A DNA stretch of 64,000 nucleotides, from the IMG/VR virus record IMGVR_UViG_3300025289_000025, positions 1 to 64,000 of that record. One strand, 5' to 3'. Source of the DNA: a virus. The position numbers and the translations under genes were made by a program. The notes beneath the pieces were generated by a model. That model was not told the DNA's origin and did no database searches. It saw only the letters and a list, made by a program, of their open reading frames with translations. This document shows positions 1,416-64,000 of this stretch, piece by piece (position 1 is the first letter of the stretch; each line of letters opens with the position of its first letter).

Positions 1416-1571
1416 ATGTTTAATGAAATGATGGCGGAGTCTATTGCTAAAGCAACTTTTTGGATTTTGATAATTTTTGCGGTGGGAATTACTGCTAGGT
1501 TTTTGATAAGAGATTATATAAATTTTCTTTTGGAGGATGTTGGTAAAAAGCCTTCGTCAGAGGACGAATGA
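1416..1571 (+). CDS. Small membrane protein (51 aa, not in ORF track)
   Basis: GGAGG SD, ATG at 1416, hydrophobic stretch ATFWILIIFAVGITARFLI, stop overlaps next ATG (ATGA). Confidence 0.55.
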   Translation: MFNEMMAESIAKATFWILIIFAVGITARFLIRDYINFLLEDVGKKPSSEDE

Positions 1572-2089
1572 TGCCCCCTTCGAATAGTAGAGAATATGCT
1601 AGGAATACCGACGTAGGCCCTGAAGATCAAATAATAATCCCCAAGGGGGATCAAATGGATAGGGAGATCGCTAACCTTAGAGAATGGATGAGGGATTTAG
1701 ATACTAAAGTAGATGCCCTCATAACTGAAGGGTGTAGTCATAGGGGAAATGATTTAGCCAAATTATCTCGAATAGAAGCAGCAACTGATGGATTTCGAAT
1801 CGAAGCGGGGGCTATTAAAGATTCTATTTATCAATTATCCTTGTCTTTTGAACAACATAAAACTAAGGTGGTAGAGTCTACTAATTTTACTAATAATAAA
1901 ATAAGTAATTTAAAATTGGGTATTTTAGCCCAATGTACTCTTTTGTTATTAGTGATATTAGGTTTTTTATTTAAGGAGTTTGTGATTCCAGCTACTAAAA
2001 ATATTTCCTCCCCATCATTAATAACAGATAAGGATCATATAAATATTGACCAAGAGACTTGGGATAAATTGATAAAAAATAAAAAATAG
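1568..2089 (+). CDS. Coiled-coil protein with C-terminal transmembrane helix (possible holin-like)
   Basis: Helical/coiled-coil N-part and hydrophobic GILAQCTLLLLVILGFLF segment. Confidence 0.55.
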   Translation: MMPPSNSREYARNTDVGPEDQIIIPKGDQMDREIANLREWMRDLDTKVDALITEGCSHRGNDLAKLSRIEAATDGFRIEAGAIKDSIYQLSLSFEQHKTKVVESTNFTNNKISNLKLGILAQCTLLLLVILGFLFKEFVIPATKNISSPSLITDKDHINIDQETWDKLIKNKK

Positions 2090-2152
2090 TAGTGAATATC
2101 TTTGATACATACTATAGTTAAACTCAAGCGTTTTATTGTATAGGGGAGAAGG

Positions 2153-4261
2153 ATGACAACGCGATTGGAATTACTTCGGAAAAGCCCAATCACTAAGAAC
2201 GCCATTGATGCCGTTTTCCTTCGTAATAAGCAAATGTTGGGGGTAACTGAAGATGATGTAATGCGAGAGCCTTATAAGAAATCGGATTTAGTTTATATTT
2301 GTATTTCTACCACTGCTAAGGCCATTTCTCAAGTTCCTTTGATAGTGGTTCGGAACTTTGGTCTTAGTGGGGAGTATAAACCCCTTCCGGATACTGATCC
2401 TTGGTCTCAGTTATTTATTAGACCCAATTATATTACTGATAGATATTCTTTTGTGGAGTCTATTATTACTTATCTATTGCACGATGGAGAAGTTTTCATT
2501 GTTCCTTATCCCCCCGGTTTGGGTCCCCCCGGCTCCCTTTGGGTGGTGAGAAATAAGTTTATCAGGCCGATGAAAGATCCCAAAACGAATCTTTTGTTAG
2601 GGTGGCTTTATAATCAATCAGGGCAATTCACCGAAGGTGGACTATCCTCCACTGCTGAAGGAATTCCTTTGCATGTAGATGAGGTTGCTAGGGTATATTT
2701 ATTCAACCCCTACGACCCGTTGAAAGGAATATCTCCTTTAGAAGCAGGAAAAATGAGTATAGTAGTTGATTATAAAGCATCTTTTTATACATCTGTATTC
2801 TTTGATGAAGGGGCTTCCCCTGGCGGGGTAATTTCTACTGAGCAAAAATTAGGAGATAAACAATTCAATCGTACTAGAGAACAATTCGAGTCTCGTCATC
2901 AAGGGTTTAAGAAAGCCCATCGTATTGCAGTATTGGAGCAAGGATTAAAGTATACTCAAACAGGTTTGAATCAAAGAGATATGGAATTTGGGGATTTAAG
3001 AAAACAAACAGCGGAAAGAATCTATCAGATTTTTGGTATGAAAAAGGCCATTGTTTCGGTTATGGAAGATGTGAATTACGCCACAGCACAGGCTGAGCGC
3101 AAGGAGTGGTGGGAAGGTACTAACCTTCCCTTAATGTCATTAACTACTTCGGCGTTGAATTTTATTCTGTTTCGTCAGAATTCCGATCTTCGGTTGATAT
3201 TTGATACCACCACCGTAGCAGCTTTGAAAGAAGCGTTGAAGGAAAAGGTAGAGACGGGATATAAACTTTGGCAAATGGGGTTCGCTGCCAATGAGATCAA
3301 TCAGCGACTCGATATGGGATTTGGTAATAAGCCTTGGCGTAACGTTGCGTTTGTCGCAGTTAATTTGCAACCGGTGGACCGTGCCCTCAATCCGCCAAAG
3401 CCAACCGTGCCAGAGTTGCCGCCACCCCCTGTATCACCCCCTGCGCTTCCCCCGCCAAAGCCTCCGAAGGCGTTGACGGAAGGGGGAGAGGAGAAATTAT
3501 CGGATAAAGACGAAGCTAGAGGAGAGCAAAGTTGGAATAATTTTATTCAAAAGACTGCCCCTTTGGAAGAGAAGTTCGAAAAGAAGGTGACAAGAGTATT
3601 TATGGATATGAGGAGTAGGTCTTTGGAGAGTTTGTATAAAAATACCAAGGCTCCCAAGGATTTGGATGATGAGCTTTTTTCAGAGGATTCTAAAAATATT
3701 TCTAAATTTACTGATCCCCTTTACGGGGATGCTATAATAGTGGGTTTTACTACTATGTTAGACGATATTGGTTCTTCCATTGTATTTAGTTTATCTGACC
3801 CCGAAGCATTAGCATTTTTAGCAACGAAAAATATTCAAATTAAGGGAATTATTCAAACTATTAAAGATCAGATACGGGTAGAATTAATGGAGGCGTATGA
3901 AAAAGGAGAAACGATTGATGAGATAGCGGCTCGCATTAGAAATGTTTTCAATATGTCTAATAGCAGAGCTAAAATCATTGCTCGTACTGAAATTCTCGGG
4001 GCAGCTGGAGAAGGCAGAAGTTTAGCGATAAACCGATCTGGATATAGAGAGAAAAGATGGTTTACTGCAATGGACGAAAGAGTACGGATGGCTCATAGAG
4101 CAATGCACGGAAAAACAGTTAAGGTGGGAAATATGTGGGTTTTGCCTGATGGGAGTTCTTTAAGATATCCAGGAGATCCCCAAGGACCAGCAAGACAAGT
4201 TGTGCAGTGTCGTTGCATTGAAACCGTAGTTTTTGAAAGTCATTTCCTTTTGGAAACTTGA
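2153..4261 (+). CDS. HK97-family portal fused to MuF/SPP1-gp7-like head morphogenesis domain
   Basis: Portal motifs (YICISTTAKAISQVP, GISPL, FFDEGASPGG, VLEQGLKY), Pro-rich linker, then MuF motifs (RAKIIARTE, KRWFTAMDERVRMAH, RYPGDP, QCRC). Confidence 0.92.
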   Translation: MTTRLELLRKSPITKNAIDAVFLRNKQMLGVTEDDVMREPYKKSDLVYICISTTAKAISQVPLIVVRNFGLSGEYKPLPDTDPWSQLFIRPNYITDRYSFVESIITYLLHDGEVFIVPYPPGLGPPGSLWVVRNKFIRPMKDPKTNLLLGWLYNQSGQFTEGGLSSTAEGIPLHVDEVARVYLFNPYDPLKGISPLEAGKMSIVVDYKASFYTSVFFDEGASPGGVISTEQKLGDKQFNRTREQFESRHQGFKKAHRIAVLEQGLKYTQTGLNQRDMEFGDLRKQTAERIYQIFGMKKAIVSVMEDVNYATAQAERKEWWEGTNLPLMSLTTSALNFILFRQNSDLRLIFDTTTVAALKEALKEKVETGYKLWQMGFAANEINQRLDMGFGNKPWRNVAFVAVNLQPVDRALNPPKPTVPELPPPPVSPPALPPPKPPKALTEGGEEKLSDKDEARGEQSWNNFIQKTAPLEEKFEKKVTRVFMDMRSRSLESLYKNTKAPKDLDDELFSEDSKNISKFTDPLYGDAIIVGFTTMLDDIGSSIVFSLSDPEALAFLATKNIQIKGIIQTIKDQIRVELMEAYEKGETIDEIAARIRNVFNMSNSRAKIIARTEILGAAGEGRSLAINRSGYREKRWFTAMDERVRMAHRAMHGKTVKVGNMWVLPDGSSLRYPGDPQGPARQVVQCRCIETVVFESHFLLET

Positions 4262-4280
4262 TAATTAGAAGGAGGTTACA

Positions 4281-5810
4281 ATGGCTGCCAAATTAGTAGG
4301 TCAGGACGGAACCCCCGTAAAGTATCAAGGAAAAGAAGTTTTCAGTTCCGATTACTCGGGGGTGGTTAAATCTGTAGATATGATGAAACGAACCCTCGTT
4401 ATGACAGGGACAGATGAGACCAAGGATAGAGACGGTGATATTATCCGGTTGTCCGGTTGGAATATGGATAACTACAAGAAGAACCCCGTTTTCCTTTGGG
4501 CCCACAATTATGGGTCAGTCCCTCTTGCTAGGGCCGAAAAGGTTACAAAAAAGAAAGAACCCCCTAGGATGGAGTTTTTGCTTCAGTTCCCCACAAAGGG
4601 GATTTACCCCTTCGCTGATATGATTTTGGAATTGTACGAGGAAAAGATAATTAACGCTTCTTCAGTGGGATTTATTCCTATGAAGTGGAATCCTATTGAA
4701 GAGGATAAGAACGATGATAATCGTAGAAATCCATATGGAAGAGAGTATATTGGTCAGGAACTTTTGGAACTTTCAGGATGCGCAGTTCCGTCTAATCCTA
4801 GTGCGGTTCAGAATGCTTTGAAGGGAAAGAATTTTGGATTTAAAGATGATGATCTTTTGAAATATCTTACGGGGGCAACGCTAATCCCTCGTCCAGAGAA
4901 GGAAGATGATATCATTGATGAATTAGATAAATCAGAAACGGAGATCGTTGACGAGACTACTATTCAAGTTCAAGTGGCAGAGAATTTGAATAAGTCTGAA
5001 GATGACGTGACTCTCACTATTGCCCCAGAAGTTGTAGAAGAGGATACCAAAATTTCTCCCCCAGTAGAGGAAGTCGTAGAAGATCCTCCAGAGGGGGAAA
5101 AAGAGATGACGATGGATATGTGTGGGTCGGGGGATCTTCCCATCAACCCCGATTCATCTTGGGATGGGAAAGCGGCTATTGCTAGAATGAAAGAGCTTTG
5201 TGGGGGTCCAGATAAGGATAAGATGAATTGGGAGAAATATGGCAAGGGATTTGTAATGAGGGATGGGGCTAACAAGGAAAGTTTTGGGTCTTATAAACTT
5301 CCCTTTGCAGATGTAAAGGATGGAAAACTCACTGCGGTTTGGGGTGGAGTTATGCGAGCTATGAGTGCTGTTCATGGTGCTCGTGGCGGAATGAATGCTT
5401 CTGATGTAGATAAGAAGAAAGCCCATAATTTCTTGGCGGGGTACTATAAGAAATTTGATAAACCCGTTCCAGAAATGACTTCTGTTTTCGATGTAGAAGA
5501 ATTAATGGTAGATTTTTCTGAGGAAATCCGTAAGATTAAGGAAGAGTTATTTATTAGCAACCAGACTTTAGAGTCAATGGTTGCAGAGATAAAGGGTATC
5601 CAGGACTCTTTGGCGAAAGCCCTTGAAGAGATCCAGAGGAAACCCAAGTCTGGAAATGGAACGTCGGATTTTATTTTGAAAGAGGCTTTCAATCAGGGGA
5701 GGGGAAAGATAGAAAATCCTCCCACAGAGAAGTACAGCAAGGAATCGTTGAACAGTTTGAGATTAGCTTTAGTTGAAGTAGCGAAGGCGATGAAAAACAT
5801 AAAACTTTAA
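4281..5810 (+). CDS. HK97-type prohead protease with acidic linker, extra domain and coiled-coil C-terminus
   Basis: DRDGDII, NPVFLWAH, SSVGF, ELLELSGCAVPSNPSA motifs; lies between portal and capsid. Confidence 0.9.
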   Translation: MAAKLVGQDGTPVKYQGKEVFSSDYSGVVKSVDMMKRTLVMTGTDETKDRDGDIIRLSGWNMDNYKKNPVFLWAHNYGSVPLARAEKVTKKKEPPRMEFLLQFPTKGIYPFADMILELYEEKIINASSVGFIPMKWNPIEEDKNDDNRRNPYGREYIGQELLELSGCAVPSNPSAVQNALKGKNFGFKDDDLLKYLTGATLIPRPEKEDDIIDELDKSETEIVDETTIQVQVAENLNKSEDDVTLTIAPEVVEEDTKISPPVEEVVEDPPEGEKEMTMDMCGSGDLPINPDSSWDGKAAIARMKELCGGPDKDKMNWEKYGKGFVMRDGANKESFGSYKLPFADVKDGKLTAVWGGVMRAMSAVHGARGGMNASDVDKKKAHNFLAGYYKKFDKPVPEMTSVFDVEELMVDFSEEIRKIKEELFISNQTLESMVAEIKGIQDSLAKALEEIQRKPKSGNGTSDFILKEAFNQGRGKIENPPTEKYSKESLNSLRLALVEVAKAMKNIKL

Positions 5811-51638: not shown

Positions 51639-54600
51639 TCATACTAAAAAATCCCAGGATTGGTTAATTTTTCCTATTTTTATATCAGATATTAATGGGA
51701 CAATGATCCAAGGATTGTTCGCTAAAACATCTTTAGTCATCACTTTTTTAGTGGTTTCTATTACATGATCTATTTCGTTTGGGTTAGTATCTATAATTAT
51801 AGAATCATGGATTTGTCCTATTAATTTAGATTTCCATTTTTCTTCTTTTGATATTTCATTTATTTTAATTATTGATTCTAAAAGTACGTGGAATGCTGTG
51901 CCTTGAATTACGGAATTTATAATTTCATTTTTGGTTAAAAATCCCCTTCGTCGGAAGCCATGCATCATTTCAACATATCCGTTTTGTTGGTATGATTTTA
52001 TTAGTCCATCTTGAAATTTTTTAATCCCACGATATTTTAGCCAAAATTCTCGCTCTGCTTTTTGAACTCTCATTATAGGTAGATCATGGTATCCTCTGCT
52101 AATTAAATCTGCATGAATATTTTTATAATAACTGCCGTAAAAGAGGGCAAAAACCATGGCGTTCTTGGCATCGAATCTCATTATTTTTGCATCGAATCCC
52201 TTTAGTTGTAAAAAATCTGCCCACTCTTGATGAATATCCGCTCCATCTATACGTTCTTTCATTAATACAGGGTCTTTGGAATAGCAAGCTAAAATGCCGA
52301 CTTCATGCCCCCCATAATCAGCCTCAGCTAATAGGTTTCCTGGAGAGGGAATTATTCCATTTCTTACCATAGTCATAGATTCTTTATCTCTTTTGGGAAT
52401 GTTTTGCATATTGGGGGAGTCCATAGAACTTCTGCCTGTTCTTACTAAATGTAAATTAGAATTAGGATGTAATTTTTTATTGACTTGTAAACCTAAAATT
52501 CCATCAATATAAGTAGTCTTCAATTTATCCAATTTTCTTTTTTTAACCAAATCTTTTGCGAAGGGTATATCCAAACTTTCCACAACGTCTTTATCTACGG
52601 AGTCCCCACCACCCTCCGTTTTTTTGATGGATTTTACTCCTAAGAATTCAAACAAAAGTTTTTTCATATCATCAGAAGAAGTTAATTTTATTTCTCTTCC
52701 TGTTTTAGATTTAAATAATTTTGCTTCTGGAGAGCGAAGTAATTGTTTTTCTAGGAAATCTAGTCTTTTTTCTAATTTTATTTGGGTATCTTGATAATAT
52801 TCTACGTTTACTGAGATCCCTTCCATTTCCATATCAGAAAAAGCAAGAACTCCTTTATGAAATAAATCGTAGGCTTTAGAAGCGGCGAGGGATTCCTTAT
52901 TCCCCTTATCCATGAAATCCCATTGCCGTTCCGCCAATCTCATCGTGAAATAAGCATCTAATCCGTTATATTTCAATAGCTCATTTAATGGGCACTTCTG
53001 CATAGTATTAAATTTAGTTCCCGGAAGGGCCTTTTTGAATTTAGAAATATCCCCTCCGTATTCATACCCCCAATTTATAAACGTTTGAAAATCTAGCCCT
53101 GTAAATCCTGCTCGTTCATCTACGATATGAGAACAAACCATTGTATCCCAATACCATCCTTTTGGCTCTTCTCCAATTATGATTTTACTCCACGGATGCT
53201 CCATCTGAATATTCTGGGCTACTTTTAATATTTCTGGGTCGGAGAGTACCCCTCGCCATGCCTTATTCAACGCTTCTAACTGTCCTGATTGCCACGCTCC
53301 GGGGTAGGAGTAGGGCCAGGCATAGGCTATGTCCTCCCCGTAGATAGCGACAGCCGTAGACACAATAGAGTGGCCGGGATAGTAGGGACGGAGGCCAGTA
53401 GTTTCATAATCAAATGCTATCGTTGGTTTTTGTTCTTTAATCGTTTTGAGAATATCTAAAATTTCATCTGTATTGGTTAGACATTTTATCTTTTGGGAAT
53501 AATCAATTTCTTCTATTTCTGGTAAATTTGAAGTTATTTGTTCCATTGCCCATTGGAGGTCTAATTTGAAAATGTTCTCTGCGTCAGGATTTCTGATAAC
53601 GAAAGAGGGATGGTATAGTGGGATAACCCAAGCCTTCGTTTGAACATCAGGAATGCAAAGTTTTCTCCATCTCCCAATAGATAAATTTGTTGAAATAGGT
53701 TGAGTCCTATTCATGAAAAACGCCTCTACTGCTTTTGCGCCAAAAAGTAGTATATACTTCGGTTGAAATTGTTGTATCGCTGCTCGCCAGTTAGGTTCGC
53801 AAGCTTTGATTTCCCGTGTAGTCGGAGTTCGGTTGCTCCCCTTCTCGTTGGTTGGCCGGCAATTATGATGAATTACTCTATTTGCTATAAAACTATTGTC
53901 CTCTTCTACTTCTATGCAAGTTAAAGACATTCTTTTTCCTATAGGAATTTTTTCTATAGAAACTATTTCTACTTCGGTGAATTGATATTCTTGATTATGA
54001 TTCTTTATTAATCTTTCTATTGGGGAAATAGGATTTTTAGAGGAAACTCGGAGTAATTCATAATTATAATTTTTAGCTAGTATGTTTTTTTTCGTTTGAT
54101 CATTTTTAACTGATTTTTGTCCGTTCCTATCCGGATTATCTACTTCCACTAGCAAATTATACTTTGGCAAAAAGAAATCATAATTTAATGTTTCAATGGC
54201 AAATTGAGAAATGAATTGTATTTTTTTATCGGATAAATAATTTGCTAAAGACCCCTCTCCAAATCCTATTGTGATAGGAGATATACTAGATAATTTATTT
54301 TCAGATTCTTTAATTTTGGCCCATTTTATTCTGCCTTTTAGCTTAGCTTCCTTAGTTACTTTCCCCCCCGTCATCTTCCCCCAAACGCCCAGTTTAGCCG
54401 ATCTTCTTACTTTTTCATGGGCTTTCTCCCTAAGTTTTTCTCCATATTTATCCTCTAAGTATTTACTTTCGCAGATTAAAGAACAAATATTTTCCCCATA
54501 AGAATTAGTTTTAAAAAAAATACCCCCACAAATTATACATTTTTCTCCTATGGCTATTATTCTATCTCCTTTATTTAATTGACGTGCATAAACCCAATTT

Positions 54601-55163
54601 TCTTTATTGTCTATTTTAGATAAAAATCTATGTGAAGAGGTAACAACAAATTCTTTCAAACTTCTATTTTTATAAGGAGAATTGATCCTCCCCACTTTAA
54701 TTTTGTAAACTTCTTCAGTAATTCTTTTAAGGTGCTTGGGAAGATCTTGAATTCTAGATATTACCTTTCTAAATCTTCCTTTATGGGTTAATACTAAATC
54801 CCCCACCTTAACTTTAGATACAGGTTTATACCCATCTATAGTAAATATAGGAACTTGATGATAAACAAAACACGCTACGGCATTAGTTTTTCTGAAATCT
54901 CTATCTAGATCGTACCCCATAATCCTAAAGCATTTTCTAAGAAAATGGCCAGTTTCTCCTATAAATTGATTGTTCAGTTGATCTTCTCGCTCACCACTAG
55001 CTTCCCCCAATATGAAGGTTTTAAGTTTTCCTTCACCAGTGGGGGGAATATTTGGGGATAGGGTACGATTTTTCAGCCCACATGCGTCACAACCTACGGC
55101 CCCTCGGGGGGTTTTTGGTTGGGCTGCTTTAGCAGGAGTTGGTATATCAAAGAACCCTCGCAT
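51639..55163 (-). CDS. polA: Family A DNA polymerase with N-terminal family-4 uracil-DNA glycosylase domain, intein-containing
   Basis: UDG: CDAC.L, GEA.G..ED, F.G..G, HPS; 3'-5' exo: FDYETTG, YNGLD; pol: TGR.S...PNMQNIP, ADY...E, K...F...YG, IQGTA, IHDS. Confidence 0.93.
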   Translation of the reverse strand: MRGFFDIPTPAKAAQPKTPRGAVGCDACGLKNRTLSPNIPPTGEGKLKTFILGEASGEREDQLNNQFIGETGHFLRKCFRIMGYDLDRDFRKTNAVACFVYHQVPIFTIDGYKPVSKVKVGDLVLTHKGRFRKVISRIQDLPKHLKRITEEVYKIKVGRINSPYKNRSLKEFVVTSSHRFLSKIDNKENWVYARQLNKGDRIIAIGEKCIICGGIFFKTNSYGENICSLICESKYLEDKYGEKLREKAHEKVRRSAKLGVWGKMTGGKVTKEAKLKGRIKWAKIKESENKLSSISPITIGFGEGSLANYLSDKKIQFISQFAIETLNYDFFLPKYNLLVEVDNPDRNGQKSVKNDQTKKNILAKNYNYELLRVSSKNPISPIERLIKNHNQEYQFTEVEIVSIEKIPIGKRMSLTCIEVEEDNSFIANRVIHHNCRPTNEKGSNRTPTTREIKACEPNWRAAIQQFQPKYILLFGAKAVEAFFMNRTQPISTNLSIGRWRKLCIPDVQTKAWVIPLYHPSFVIRNPDAENIFKLDLQWAMEQITSNLPEIEEIDYSQKIKCLTNTDEILDILKTIKEQKPTIAFDYETTGLRPYYPGHSIVSTAVAIYGEDIAYAWPYSYPGAWQSGQLEALNKAWRGVLSDPEILKVAQNIQMEHPWSKIIIGEEPKGWYWDTMVCSHIVDERAGFTGLDFQTFINWGYEYGGDISKFKKALPGTKFNTMQKCPLNELLKYNGLDAYFTMRLAERQWDFMDKGNKESLAASKAYDLFHKGVLAFSDMEMEGISVNVEYYQDTQIKLEKRLDFLEKQLLRSPEAKLFKSKTGREIKLTSSDDMKKLLFEFLGVKSIKKTEGGGDSVDKDVVESLDIPFAKDLVKKRKLDKLKTTYIDGILGLQVNKKLHPNSNLHLVRTGRSSMDSPNMQNIPKRDKESMTMVRNGIIPSPGNLLAEADYGGHEVGILACYSKDPVLMKERIDGADIHQEWADFLQLKGFDAKIMRFDAKNAMVFALFYGSYYKNIHADLISRGYHDLPIMRVQKAEREFWLKYRGIKKFQDGLIKSYQQNGYVEMMHGFRRRGFLTKNEIINSVIQGTAFHVLLESIIKINEISKEEKWKSKLIGQIHDSIIIDTNPNEIDHVIETTKKVMTKDVLANNPWIIVPLISDIKIGKINQSWDFLV
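53862..54872 (-). mobile_element. Intein (337 aa) with PD-(D/E)xK / Vsr-like endonuclease in the UDG domain
   Basis: TNAVA|CFVYHQVPIFTIDG ... VTSSHRF ... SFIANRVIHHN|CRP; internal YDFFLPKYNLLVEVD. Confidence 0.9.
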
Positions 55164-61923: not shown

Positions 61924-62303
61924 ATCCTCGCCTCTGTAAATACTTTATTCCATAATATCGTTATAGGTATTTTCAATTTCCGTACTCCATATTGTTCTGG
62001 AAATCGGATAGCAAATTCCAACTCCCCCGATTCTTTGACTAATACAAATAAAATCATATCGGCCTCTGTTCCCTTATCAAAGTGGAATCTCCCTCTTCTT
62101 CTCTTCCATTTTCCCTTAACACTTTCTGAATGTATCCATTCTTGGCACGATTTTATTTCTATCTTTGCATCTCCCACCGTAACGTCGTATCCAGCTTTAT
62201 AATCTGGTTTAATCGGAGGATCTTTGAAAAAGTCCCCCAAATATTTGAGTACTCTTTCGTCAGATTCGCTCCAGTGTCTTGAAAAGAATCCTTTATTTTT
62301 CAC
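61920..62303 (-). CDS. PD-(D/E)xK nuclease-like protein
   Basis: GYDVTVGDAKIEIKSC. Confidence 0.55.
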   Translation of the reverse strand: MKNKGFFSRHWSESDERVLKYLGDFFKDPPIKPDYKAGYDVTVGDAKIEIKSCQEWIHSESVKGKWKRRRGRFHFDKGTEADMILFVLVKESGELEFAIRFPEQYGVRKLKIPITILWNKVFTEARI

Positions 62304-64000
62304 CGGACCAAATTTTCTAACATTTCTAAGCGGAAGTCAGAACTTTCAATATATCTCCAAACTATATTTCCTTCTCGATCTCTTCCATAAGGTTCAATTC
62401 CCTGGGCCCAATCCACCTGATATGCTTGATGTCCCCCAAGATTCCACGAATTCTTTACTTCTTGCATTAAGGTTTCTGATAACCACCCCCCACGTTCCTC
62501 TACGAAAGCGTTATATTTCCCCCACGTTACTGGGTGGGGTCCGTTATCCCGAACAAACCTAGCAGCAATCATGTTGTTCCCGTAGGAGAACCCTCCACCC
62601 AGGGGTAAGTAAACATCTGATACGGAGCAGCAGATTTCATCATTATTGATCGGGGAATTCCCGAAATCGAAGGTGGAAGTTGAAAATCCCTCGGATTTCA
62701 TCATTTTCATAAATTCTCCTAAAATCAAAGAACCCAACCACTGACTATCTGACATTAGCAAAAACATTCTACGAAAATCTATTCCTTCCATTTCCATTTG
62801 GCGTTCAACTCCAGGGGCAGAAGCGGAGTAGCTATATGTATCAAAAGTGATATGTTTAATCCCTGCTTCCCTGACTCCCTGTATCCATTTTTGAACATAA
62901 TAAGGATCATCGTTCACAAAGACCATGAATGGCTCGATCCTTGCGACAACCCTAACCCCTGCATCCGTAAGGGCTTTTACAGCAAGCATGCGTTTCTCAA
63001 AAGACGGGGCGCCAGGTTCCAACTTTTTATTTAGAATACCATCTGAAGATATCGCCGTCATATGAACAGCAGCACCACCTTTATTATCTGCTAGTGCCCT
63101 AACGTAATCTTCTCTTCCGATTAACGCAGACTTAGTGTTCACCATTATGGGATATGCAATATCAGATAAATATTGCATAAAATTCAAACTGATTCCTTTT
63201 TGAGCTTCGATAGGAAGAAAATCTTCAAATCGAATTCCTAGACGGATGGGAATTTGTAGACTGATTGCTTTATTTAATTCTGGGCCATCTATTTTCTTTC
63301 CCCTATATGGCATTAATTTATCCATCTCTGCTCGAAAGTATTCTGGACGGCAGTGGCGTATTCCAATTTCCTTGGGGTTATCAAAGAATGAAGTATAAAG
63401 AGAACTGCGAAAAGAGTCCGCAAAACAATTATGTACAAGAATTCCCTCTGCAAAATAATTATTATTAGGTTGACACTCAAAATTATAGACTATTTTTTTA
63501 CCACTAGTTTTTGCTCTAGATATAGATTCAATTCTACTCCATTCCCATTTAGAAACACTATTAGATTTAGAATAATATGGGGATATCATCATATCATGCA
63601 TATTTAATTTATTTGCTTCTATCCAACCCCTAGTAGTAAATATTGTATGCTCTGGGGTTAACTTTAGAATATTATTTTTAGTTTTGATAACTATTAAGTC
63701 TTCGGTAGCTCTGCTCATTATTTTTTGAACGATTGATTTTTCTTCTATCAATAAACTATTATAAGTATTTAGAGAAACAACCTCATCTCCCTCTTTAATT
63801 TTTTCTATATTCTTTTTTATACCATTCCACATTTGTATTTTGGTTTTAGGAGGTAAACAATATTTGCATGCGTAGCTGCAATTATGAACTAATTGGGAAG
63901 ATGCAAAGAAATTGCTATTTCTATCTACAGTTAAATCAAATACAGCAGTAGGTTTACTAATTTTCCGTAGACTTTTTATTTTCTTAAATCTAGTTTGCAT
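62300..64000 (-). CDS. Radical SAM enzyme (SplB/Rv2578c-like) interrupted by two inteins; N-terminus at or beyond window edge
   Basis: Spliced motif CSYACKYCFA; VNTKS, LEPGAPS...R, L..AG..V.AR.EP. Confidence 0.85.
   Translation of the reverse strand: MQTRFKKIKSLRKISKPTAVFDLTVDRNSNFFASSQLVHNCSYACKYCLPPKTKIQMWNGIKKNIEKIKEGDEVVSLNTYNSLLIEEKSIVQKIMSRATEDLIVIKTKNNILKLTPEHTIFTTRGWIEANKLNMHDMMISPYYSKSNSVSKWEWSRIESISRAKTSGKKIVYNFECQPNNNYFAEGILVHNCFADSFRSSLYTSFFDNPKEIGIRHCRPEYFRAEMDKLMPYRGKKIDGPELNKAISLQIPIRLGIRFEDFLPIEAQKGISLNFMQYLSDIAYPIMVNTKSALIGREDYVRALADNKGGAAVHMTAISSDGILNKKLEPGAPSFEKRMLAVKALTDAGVRVVARIEPFMVFVNDDPYYVQKWIQGVREAGIKHITFDTYSYSASAPGVERQMEMEGIDFRRMFLLMSDSQWLGSLILGEFMKMMKSEGFSTSTFDFGNSPINNDEICCSVSDVYLPLGGGFSYGNNMIAARFVRDNGPHPVTWGKYNAFVEERGGWLSETLMQEVKNSWNLGGHQAYQVDWAQGIEPYGRDREGNIVWRYIESSDFRLEMLENLVR
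63428..63859 (-). mobile_element. Mini-intein (144 aa, no endonuclease)
   Basis: KY|CLPPKTKI ... LTPEH ... VYNFE...NNYFAEGILVHN|CFA. Confidence 0.92.
63881..64000 (-). mobile_element. C-terminal block of another intein
   Basis: KIKSL...VFDLTVDRNSNFFASSQLVHN|CSY. Confidence 0.9.

Follow-up and report, generated by a model that had tools for sequence, protein, structure and literature searches.

The closest described relatives of the locus reported here are fractured genes, in which the two halves of a split intein flank a free-standing endonuclease gene of the Vsr-like or GIY-YIG type, and which are of phage origin (Dassa 2009, PMC2677866). According to the passages of that account considered here, they include gp41-1, NrdJ-1 and IMPDH-1, the endonuclease open reading frame (ORF) overlaps the downstream one by 6-69 bp, and the intein halves carry complementary charges, both polarities having been reported, in different loci. 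We describe a gene of this kind in the IMG/VR virus record IMGVR_UViG_3300025289_000025, a metagenome-derived sequence of 90,296 bases with a CheckV completeness of ~97%. The stretch analysed, hereafter the window, consists of bases 1-64000 of this record; the gene, which encodes a radical S-adenosylmethionine (SAM) enzyme, straddles the end of the window, and coordinates beyond 64000 keep the same contig numbering. The arrangement is the known fractured-gene, split-intein type, newly stacked on a contiguous intein inside the CxxxCxxC motif of the iron-sulphur (Fe-S) cluster. We consider it quite likely that two separate selfish elements invaded a phage radical SAM gene, each at a different one of the motif's three invariant cysteine codons.

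The gene is broken into three overlapping ORFs on the minus strand, which encode the N-extein with the N-terminal intein half (IntN), an endonuclease, and the C-terminal intein half (IntC) followed by the heptapeptide CSYACKY, a mini-intein and the C-extein. The last of these ORFs, at 62300..64000, specifies 566 amino acids (aa) in four parts. IntC1, the C-half of a split intein (MQTRF...SSQLVHN, residues 1-40, 40 aa), occupies 63881..64000. It is followed at 63860..63880 by the seven-residue extein CSYACKY (residues 41-47), which carries the first and second Cys of the radical SAM motif and serves as C-extein to the split intein and as N-extein to the mini-intein. The contiguous mini-intein itself (CLPPK...ILVHN, residues 48-191, 144 aa) lies at 63428..63859, an insertion point designated site c, and the C-extein (CFADSF..., residues 192-566, 375 aa) opens with the third Cys and extends over 62303..63427, with the stop codon at 62300-62302. 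Upstream on the same strand, HEG1, a free-standing homing endonuclease ORF of 381 aa, occupies 63990..65135; its last 11 nt (63990..64000) fall inside the window and overlap the start of IntC1. Beyond the window, a 183-aa ORF (65135..65686) comprises, by ORF and junction reading, an N-extein of 91 aa (65414..65686) and an IntN1 of 92 aa (65138..65413), and its stop overlaps the start of the 381-aa ORF as TAATG.

A preliminary description of the window had recognized two inteins separated by seven residues, the +1 nucleophiles of which are the first and third cysteines of CxxxCxxC. Both junctions stand on the minus strand, reading LVHN/CSYACKY/CLPP...ILVHN/CFADSF (slashes mark the junctions), and site c does hold a whole mini-intein; the first element has to be revised to the C-half of a split intein. 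The stop-to-stop frame of the 566-aa ORF opens at the Met at 64000, with TAA TAA in frame directly before the ATG and GGGAG 10 nt upstream, and IntC1 covers positions 114-155 of the 155 in the Pfam Intein_splicing profile, that is, the last quarter only. It is because the frame is closed directly upstream, and because only part of the profile is matched, that we assign the element to a split intein. The same stop codons rule out a contiguous intein 1 running past the window edge. Asn40 of IntC1 precedes Cys+1, which is the first Cys of the motif (site a). The missing N-extein is found in the first 91 residues of the 183-aa product, which align with the N-termini of homologs and end in ...CPMPLNADVYDALY; the remaining 92 residues start with CIAKGQ and cover the N-halves of HINT profiles only (PT-HINT 1-89 of 137, Intein_splicing 7-93 of 155), and a PDB sequence search aligned them with the N-parts of three inteins of known structure, NrdJ-1 among them. 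Net charges, counted over the whole halves and not the interface strands, are -6 for IntN1 and +6 for IntC1. By these sequence features, intein 1 belongs to the naturally split inteins, with halves of 92 + 40 aa that are kept apart by another gene.

The mini-intein matches Intein_splicing over its full length (residues 59-191 against profile positions 5-155 of 155, E 6.5e-19, 68.7 bits with a cut-off of 35.8), has Cys1, a TPEH block B and a terminal ...ILVHN/C, and contains no endonuclease domain; a PDB sequence search matched it to the Spl DnaX mini-intein (E 6.2e-8). Its insertion is precise, given that C...C.YC[FY]A[DN]xF runs uninterrupted at this spot in homologs. Cys1, TxxH, the terminal HN and Cys+1 are all present in the split intein and in the mini-intein. 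The two were also considered as recent duplicates of each other, an idea that was rejected: IntC1 and the mini-intein tail share 33% identity over 36 aa, and block F has Asp in one and Asn in the other. In one groundwater sequencing run (X14), a second, diverged contig covers part of the mini-intein (L001 3489-3551, six differences, then unlike), and a related strain co-occurs in that run.

The C-extein (its residues 3-375 being used as the query) retrieved 504 proteins at E <= 1e-3, the best 120 of which were classified by motif. Full-length, intein-free proteins with C...C.YC followed by [FY]A[DN]xF account for 97 of these 120 best matches, so that homologs free of inteins do carry CxxxCxxC at this place. 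Inteins at the third Cys are contiguous in three proteins, represented by a protein-initial IntC in three more, and fused to an endonuclease-like N-part in ten. An IntC was found once at the first Cys (P0064, site a), once at the second (P0035, site b) and once at an upstream invariant Cys in CPMPLN (P0014, site z); one entry, the cluster of the window itself, has intein junctions at both the first and the third Cys, and the remaining three are fragments that lack this region. C78, C92, C96 and C99 are invariant across 48 aligned homologs free of inteins. CSYACKY aligns to C92 and C96, and the motif cysteines of the 566-aa product are C41, C45 and C192, which bears out the earlier assignment of the +1 nucleophiles to the first and third of them.

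Judging from profile matches, the enzyme appears to be SplB/PA0069-like, a distant relative of the PA0069/Rv2578c 'DNA repair photolyase'-type radical SAM proteins and not a member of them: it matches the NCBIfam models PA0069 at E 2.7e-13 (50.8 bits against a cut-off of 360) and Rv2578c at E 2.8e-11 (44.7 bits against 430). For Pfam PF04055, with a gathering threshold of 29.5 bits, the 566-aa product scores 22.3 bits and the intein-free homolog P0004 26.0 bits, covering positions 6-164 of 166, and PF04055 is precomputed for most homologs of the C-extein. Searching the PDB with a profile of the intein-free family brought up no relative of solved structure, and tblastn of the same C-extein query against 50,697 GenBank phage records gave no match. 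Among the species genomes of GTDB, the family is carried by five contigs of metagenome-assembled genomes only. This radical SAM family is almost confined to uncultured viral contigs. A related phage, the 73.6-kb IMG/VR contig L082, keeps the same gene order, and its ortholog (P0002, 615 aa) has the site-c intein only; nucleotide identity to it is 69-81% by segment, too diverged to reveal co-conversion tracts around site a. The site-c mini-intein is the older of the two elements.

HEG1 is built of repeated NPMK-type motifs and a C-terminal domain. On its own it matches a PHROG homing endonuclease weakly (E 4.4e-5), reaches 16.5 bits against Pfam DUF559, under the threshold of 20.6, and returned only noise in a single-sequence PDB search. 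An alignment of five nuclease domains, taken from HEG1, from the endonuclease of a second fractured gene described below (HEG2), from the nuclease of an intein in a UDG gene of the window and from two IMG/VR inteins, gave a profile that matches PDB entry 3R3P at E 1.8e-9 over 4-95 of 98 positions. This is the code named in the I-Bth0305I paper that defines the Vsr-like EDxHD family of homing endonucleases (PMC3239194). Compared with Pfam, four of the five members match DUF559 and MTES_1575, and two match Vsr. By these profile matches, the C-terminal nuclease domain is homologous to Vsr and I-Bth0305I, and site-specific cleavage of the empty allele is predicted. Scanning IMG/VR with HEG1 yielded four weak loci, three of which turned out to be inteins that enclose a nuclease of this same type. 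At the locus L087-L089 (about 1489-3639), a phage head-morphogenesis-like protein contains an intein (HPN/CFIDKQ ... VVVHN/C) with a nested nuclease that shares the NPMK-repeat and Vsr-like build of HEG1. The footprint of I-Bth0305I is given as ~60 bp (PMC3239194), and sites a and c are 21 bp apart. The neighbouring intein probably affects homing, in the way described for haloarchaeal MCM inteins (PMC10643990).

The likeness to the genes of Dassa 2009 is extensive, as far as the cited passages go. Both have the same-strand order of N-extein with IntN, endonuclease ORF, and IntC with C-extein; in both the 3' end of the endonuclease overlaps the start of the downstream ORF (here by 11 nt, and by 16 nt in the second fractured gene); and both share the split at the usual endonuclease insertion point, complementary charges, a Vsr-like endonuclease and phage origin. 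The host protein is different. Those passages name eight host types, from DNA synthesis and repair and with no radical SAM enzyme among them, and mention 'radical SAM' only in connection with the thiyl radical of ribonucleotide reductase (PMC2677866). Unlike the genes described there, the IntC polypeptide of the present locus carries a contiguous intein seven residues downstream, and two paralogs of one genome are both fractured, with opposite polarities.

Another point of comparison is provided by actinobacterial SplB (COG1533), for which 48 inteins are listed in Actinobacteria (Novikova et al. 2016, PMC4760082, Table 1), and by the NCBIfam model NF038136, the 'intein-containing Rv2578c family'. 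When NF038136 was mapped on the genome, profile position 76 corresponded to Cys1 of both the mini-intein and IntN1, and positions 69-75 aligned with CSYACKY, which suggests that the actinobacterial SplB/Rv2578c intein is also located at the third Cys, site c. The actinobacterial form belongs to the same broad superfamily branch and differs in being a single contiguous intein in a cellular gene; the best NF038136 score in our genome, 37.9 bits against a cut-off of 700, does not indicate membership. The literature on radical SAM and SplB inteins consulted here describes no actinobacterial form that is split, occupies site a, b or z, or is doubly occupied, and it contains no account of a split and a whole intein arranged in this way.

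Since the record derives from a metagenome, an artefact of assembly or gene calling had to be considered: intein 1 would truly be contiguous, and a chimeric contig would be responsible for the stop codons and the endonuclease ORF. The evidence makes the chance of this negligible. The identical 566-aa protein was found on 32 contigs and the 183-aa ORF on 41, the longest contig for both being 126,844 bases, and at least 97% of the sampled words of the locus are present in 20 run records, drawn from 17 studies of groundwater, sediment and soil. No RNA data set is listed among the runs containing the locus. In two runs, contigs of 48 kb and 49 kb contain all 3.4 kb of the locus and differ from it nowhere. 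Two further runs, one of which (X20) is not flagged as a possible source, gave shorter contigs that run across the ORF junctions, the endonuclease ORF and the start of IntC, again without differences. The same layout with an IntC at the start of an ORF at six other IMG/VR loci and the existence of 15 separate N-extein plus IntN proteins also speak against a chimera. In the sequencing runs we found no contigs joining across the endonuclease or the intein, bearing in mind that contigs drop rare variants.

The maturation of the enzyme can be outlined from class-1 intein chemistry. The three ORFs are presumably co-transcribed. The mini-intein would splice in cis, through an acyl shift at Tyr47-Cys48, transfer to Cys192 and cyclization of Asn191, joining ...CKY to CFADSF. 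The acidic IntN1 (-6) and basic IntC1 (+6) would associate electrostatically and splice in trans, using Cys92 of the 183-aa product, then Cys41 and then Asn40, to join ...DALY to CSYACKY. Our placing of the cis step first is a guess. The ligated enzyme would have 91 + 7 + 375 = 473 aa, and intein-free homologs have 461-481 aa. Maturation is predicted to need one trans- and one cis-splicing event, starting from two polypeptides, and the [4Fe-4S] site could form only once both steps were complete. The preliminary view that two splicing events are required to build the cluster-binding loop agrees with the two junctions on the first and third cysteines.

It might be argued that two HINT domains seven residues apart simply fail to splice, and that the gene is a decaying pseudogene, the function of which is supplied by the paralog or by the host. 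Splicing and expression are predicted from the genes, the paralog would yield an odd CX3CX3C where its relatives have CX3CX2C, and the genome is unusually rich in mobile elements. Yet the state of the gene makes such decay very improbable. Of the 70 columns that do not vary among the 48 intein-free homologs, the gene retains all 70: the two large exteins account for 68 of them, and CSYACKY for the other two (C92 and C96). Every catalytic residue of the inteins is present. Relative to the L082 ortholog, the ratio of nonsynonymous to synonymous substitution rates (dN/dS) is ~0.08 in both exteins and ~0.16 in the mini-intein, the orthologous intein in L082 being 70% identical at the protein level; these are rough figures, given the saturation of dS (above 1.3). 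Many assemblies contain an identical sequence, and the same seven-residue spacing occurs in a second lineage with other elements.

That second lineage emerged from a survey of relatives. In the radical SAM family, the four insertion sites a, b, c and z lie within 22 residues, and single occupancy of each was observed. The 15 proteins consisting of N-extein plus IntN are broken at the first Cys in six cases (the window's own included), at the third in seven and at the CPMPLN Cys in two. Among the best 80 IMG/VR loci of the family, 78 could be classified (L010 and L071 could not): 74 of the 78 are intein-free, and four have a site-c mini-intein. A scan of IMG/VR with the pattern V-H-N-C-x3-C-x-Y-C picked up 16 stretches, namely six site-a ORFs led by an IntC and followed by an intact motif, four doubly occupied genes, one other radical-SAM-like gene and five that are noise. 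Homologous IntC pieces open ORFs in P0064, L096, L102, L103, L104, L106 and L107. The doubly occupied loci (L098, L099, L105 and L108) present a mirror image of the window. In L098 (positions 2837-5673), the N-extein lies in a 331-aa ORF, where it is followed by a contiguous mini-intein on the first Cys, then by the heptapeptide CPFACIY and lastly, on the third Cys, by the N-half of a split intein; the ORF after it, of 615 aa, encodes an endonuclease-like domain fused in frame to the IntC and C-extein. A homolog survey for single and double occupancy, as proposed in the preliminary description, has therefore found both, the double state in the window's own cluster and in the L098 group. The extreme intein packing noted there holds as far as the seven-residue spacing is concerned, and is seen in two of the lineages surveyed, with different elements.

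The site-a intein of L098 is 50% identical to IntN1 over 82 residues, and the IntN pieces of site-c split inteins start with CLPP..., as does the mini-intein of the window. The same intein lineages therefore exist in a whole and in a split state. Among themselves, the IntC pieces of sites a, b and z are 50-64% identical over 36 aa, against 33-39% identity to the site-c group. A word-based search with residues 1-47 recovered only the window's own cluster and P0035, from three candidates, and has little bearing on the question of rarity. Several other states were seen among the relatives. The ten fusion proteins (P0005, P0007, P0010, P0018, P0023, P0031, P0032, P0039, P0047 and P0048) have an endonuclease-like N-part with a Zn-ribbon and ITNTHL and NPMW motifs, then the IntC, then the C-extein, and in L103 (3-797) the IntN continues into endonuclease-like sequence; these fusions may be intermediates between split and endonuclease-containing inteins, or gene-calling errors. 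At the site-a split locus of L096 (11092-12840), ~160 nt separate the IntN and IntC ORFs, which leaves no room for an endonuclease gene, and the endonuclease seems to have been lost; the corresponding gaps in L102 and L104 are ~800 nt. P0035, in which the IntC of a site-b split intein precedes CLYCYV, and the intein-free P0126 (474 aa) fall in the same cluster at 90% identity and form a presence/absence pair.

The contig contains five inteins: two in the gene described above (gene 1), one in gene 2, one in the UDG gene and one in an epimerase/dehydratase. Gene 2, a radical SAM paralog situated 6 kb from gene 1, is likewise fractured, with the junction at the third Cys. It consists of N-extein2 plus IntN2 (135 aa, contig 71823..72230, L001 11823-12230), the endonuclease-like HEG2 (326 aa, contig 70853..71833) and IntC2 plus C-extein2 (393 aa, contig 69687..70868, L001 9687-10868); in L082 the gene is intact, with 395 aa and the sequence GCSFPCHFCFC. 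Its split intein has the opposite polarity, IntN2 carrying a net charge of +4 and IntC2 of -6. As cognate halves would attract and non-cognate halves repel each other, this should limit cross-splicing between the two paralogs. N-extein2 ends in GCSAGCNWM and C-extein2 starts with CFCREME, which gives CX3CX3C after the predicted splicing; the intein-free relatives of gene 2 (the L082 ortholog, P0142, P0146 and P0147) have CX3CX2C, one residue fewer.

In the window, a minus-strand ORF at 51639..55163 (1174 aa) fuses a UDG-like domain, a 3'-5' exonuclease and a family A polymerase (PolA), and is interrupted at 53862..54872, on the same strand, by an intein of 337 aa with the junctions NAVA/CFVYHQ and VIHHN/CRPTNE. 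The nested Vsr-like nuclease of this intein aligns with HEG1 and HEG2; it reads VEVDN-PDRNG where the others have E.DG...H, and it may be degenerate. The cysteine at the junction is one that we take to be an Fe-S ligand. With that assumption, the earlier remark that all three inteins sit at cysteines of Fe-S domains holds within the window, but it does not extend to the fifth intein of the contig. This is a 444-aa LAGLIDADG-type intein in an NAD-dependent epimerase/dehydratase similar to GDP-mannose dehydratase (contig 67423..69690, L001 7423-9690). It uses Ser1 and Thr+1, outside any Fe-S context, and the epimerase/dehydratase ortholog in L082 is intact (311 aa). Just upstream of fractured gene 1, a free-standing homing endonuclease gene with GIY-YIG and NUMOD3 domains (251 aa) occupies contig 65978..66733 (L001 5978-6733); in L082, a GIY-YIG ORF is found on the opposite side of the ortholog.

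Inteins need Cys, Ser or Thr at +1, and homing endonucleases favour invariant DNA, which would make three Cys codons within eight residues ideal targets. Because the invariant Cys codons offer both the +1 nucleophile and a conserved endonuclease target, four sites within 22 residues can be explained without any host benefit, and we infer that the tight packing is a by-product of element homing and not a device of the host. The opposite opinion, along the lines of the gating suggested in the preliminary description, would be that the inteins are retained as an adaptive gate, delaying assembly of an oxygen-labile Fe-S enzyme. At the N-terminal junction of the mini-intein, C-K-Y/C, the extein Cys-3 (the second cluster ligand) and the intein Cys1 form a CxxC; on oxidation, these two, or other nearby cysteines, would pair and block splicing until conditions became reducing. 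The MoaA of Pyrococcus abyssi is a radical SAM enzyme with an intein in its CxxxCxxC motif. Reviews report that in the MoaA intein of Pyrococcus abyssi, which has the same CxxC geometry and an oxygen-sensitive host, a native Cys-3:Cys1 disulfide controls splicing (PMC3922620, PMC10663303). There, in the passages cited, redox control has been demonstrated, for a single contiguous intein; here, redox gating of splicing is a possibility raised by the sequence. The retention of the mini-intein between diverged phages under purifying selection and the double occupancy in two lineages would also fit with a gate. On the other hand, Cys-3 is inherent to any site-c intein in CxxxCxxC and is no sign of selection, the 97 of 120 best homologs and 74 of 78 classified IMG/VR loci that are intein-free imply that the enzyme does not need a gate, and the homing endonuclease gene accounts for spread without host benefit. 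We regard retention for this purpose as unlikely. Somewhat more doubtful still is a two-input maturation switch, in which the cluster loop would need a partner-dependent trans-splice as well as a cis-splice, both redox-dependent owing to the CxxC of extein Cys-3 and intein Cys1 and to the other cysteines crowded within eight residues, and retained by the phage for that reason. If this were true, the mirrored split and whole arrangement of the second lineage would be convergent.

Several considerations weigh against the preferred explanation, that of two selfish elements invading invariant Cys codons. Splicing is predicted from sequence, and the fit of two HINT folds seven residues apart is assumed. 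As many as 19 of the 20 run records may represent the locus's own source or one sampling campaign. The saturation of dS affects the dN/dS values given above, and the orthogonality of the two split inteins is argued from net charge only. Block F of the mini-intein, VYNFEC, has Asn where Asp is usual; since all 18 of the 18 site-c inteins examined share this Asn, and the four of four IntC pieces from sites a, b and z have Asp, it is probably a trait of the lineage and not a mark of decay. Lastly, selfish packing may be compatible with a secondary regulatory effect.

Proteins with more than one intein are known in other contexts. Trichodesmium DnaE, to go by the title of a 2003 paper by Liu and Yang, is said to combine split and contiguous inteins. 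Neighbouring inteins alter each other's homing in the case of haloarchaeal MCM-a and MCM-d (PMC10643990), the cited passages of that paper stating no inter-site distance. In DnaB, sites a and c are two residues apart and are described as alternative sites (PMC4760082). Unlike these, the sites seven residues apart in the present locus are occupied together, within a metal-binding motif and in two mirrored configurations. The literature consulted, which did not extend to InBase and supplementary tables, states no inter-intein distance as short as this. CSYACKY may be an unusually short natural extein between inteins, placed in a metal-binding loop, although we do not claim that it is the shortest.

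Our results add a radical SAM enzyme to the hosts of fractured genes, and to their products a polypeptide that would need both trans- and cis-splicing. One genome holds two split inteins of opposite polarity in paralogs, together with a mini-intein that would tolerate a seven-residue N-extein, and these three are candidate orthogonal parts for the ligation of multi-fragment proteins. Within the family, site a is split here and whole in L098, whereas site c is whole here and split in L098, which provides comparative material on how endonuclease invasion may break mini-inteins. Whether the homing and the splicing order of inteins are constrained by their neighbours could also be studied cleanly at this locus.

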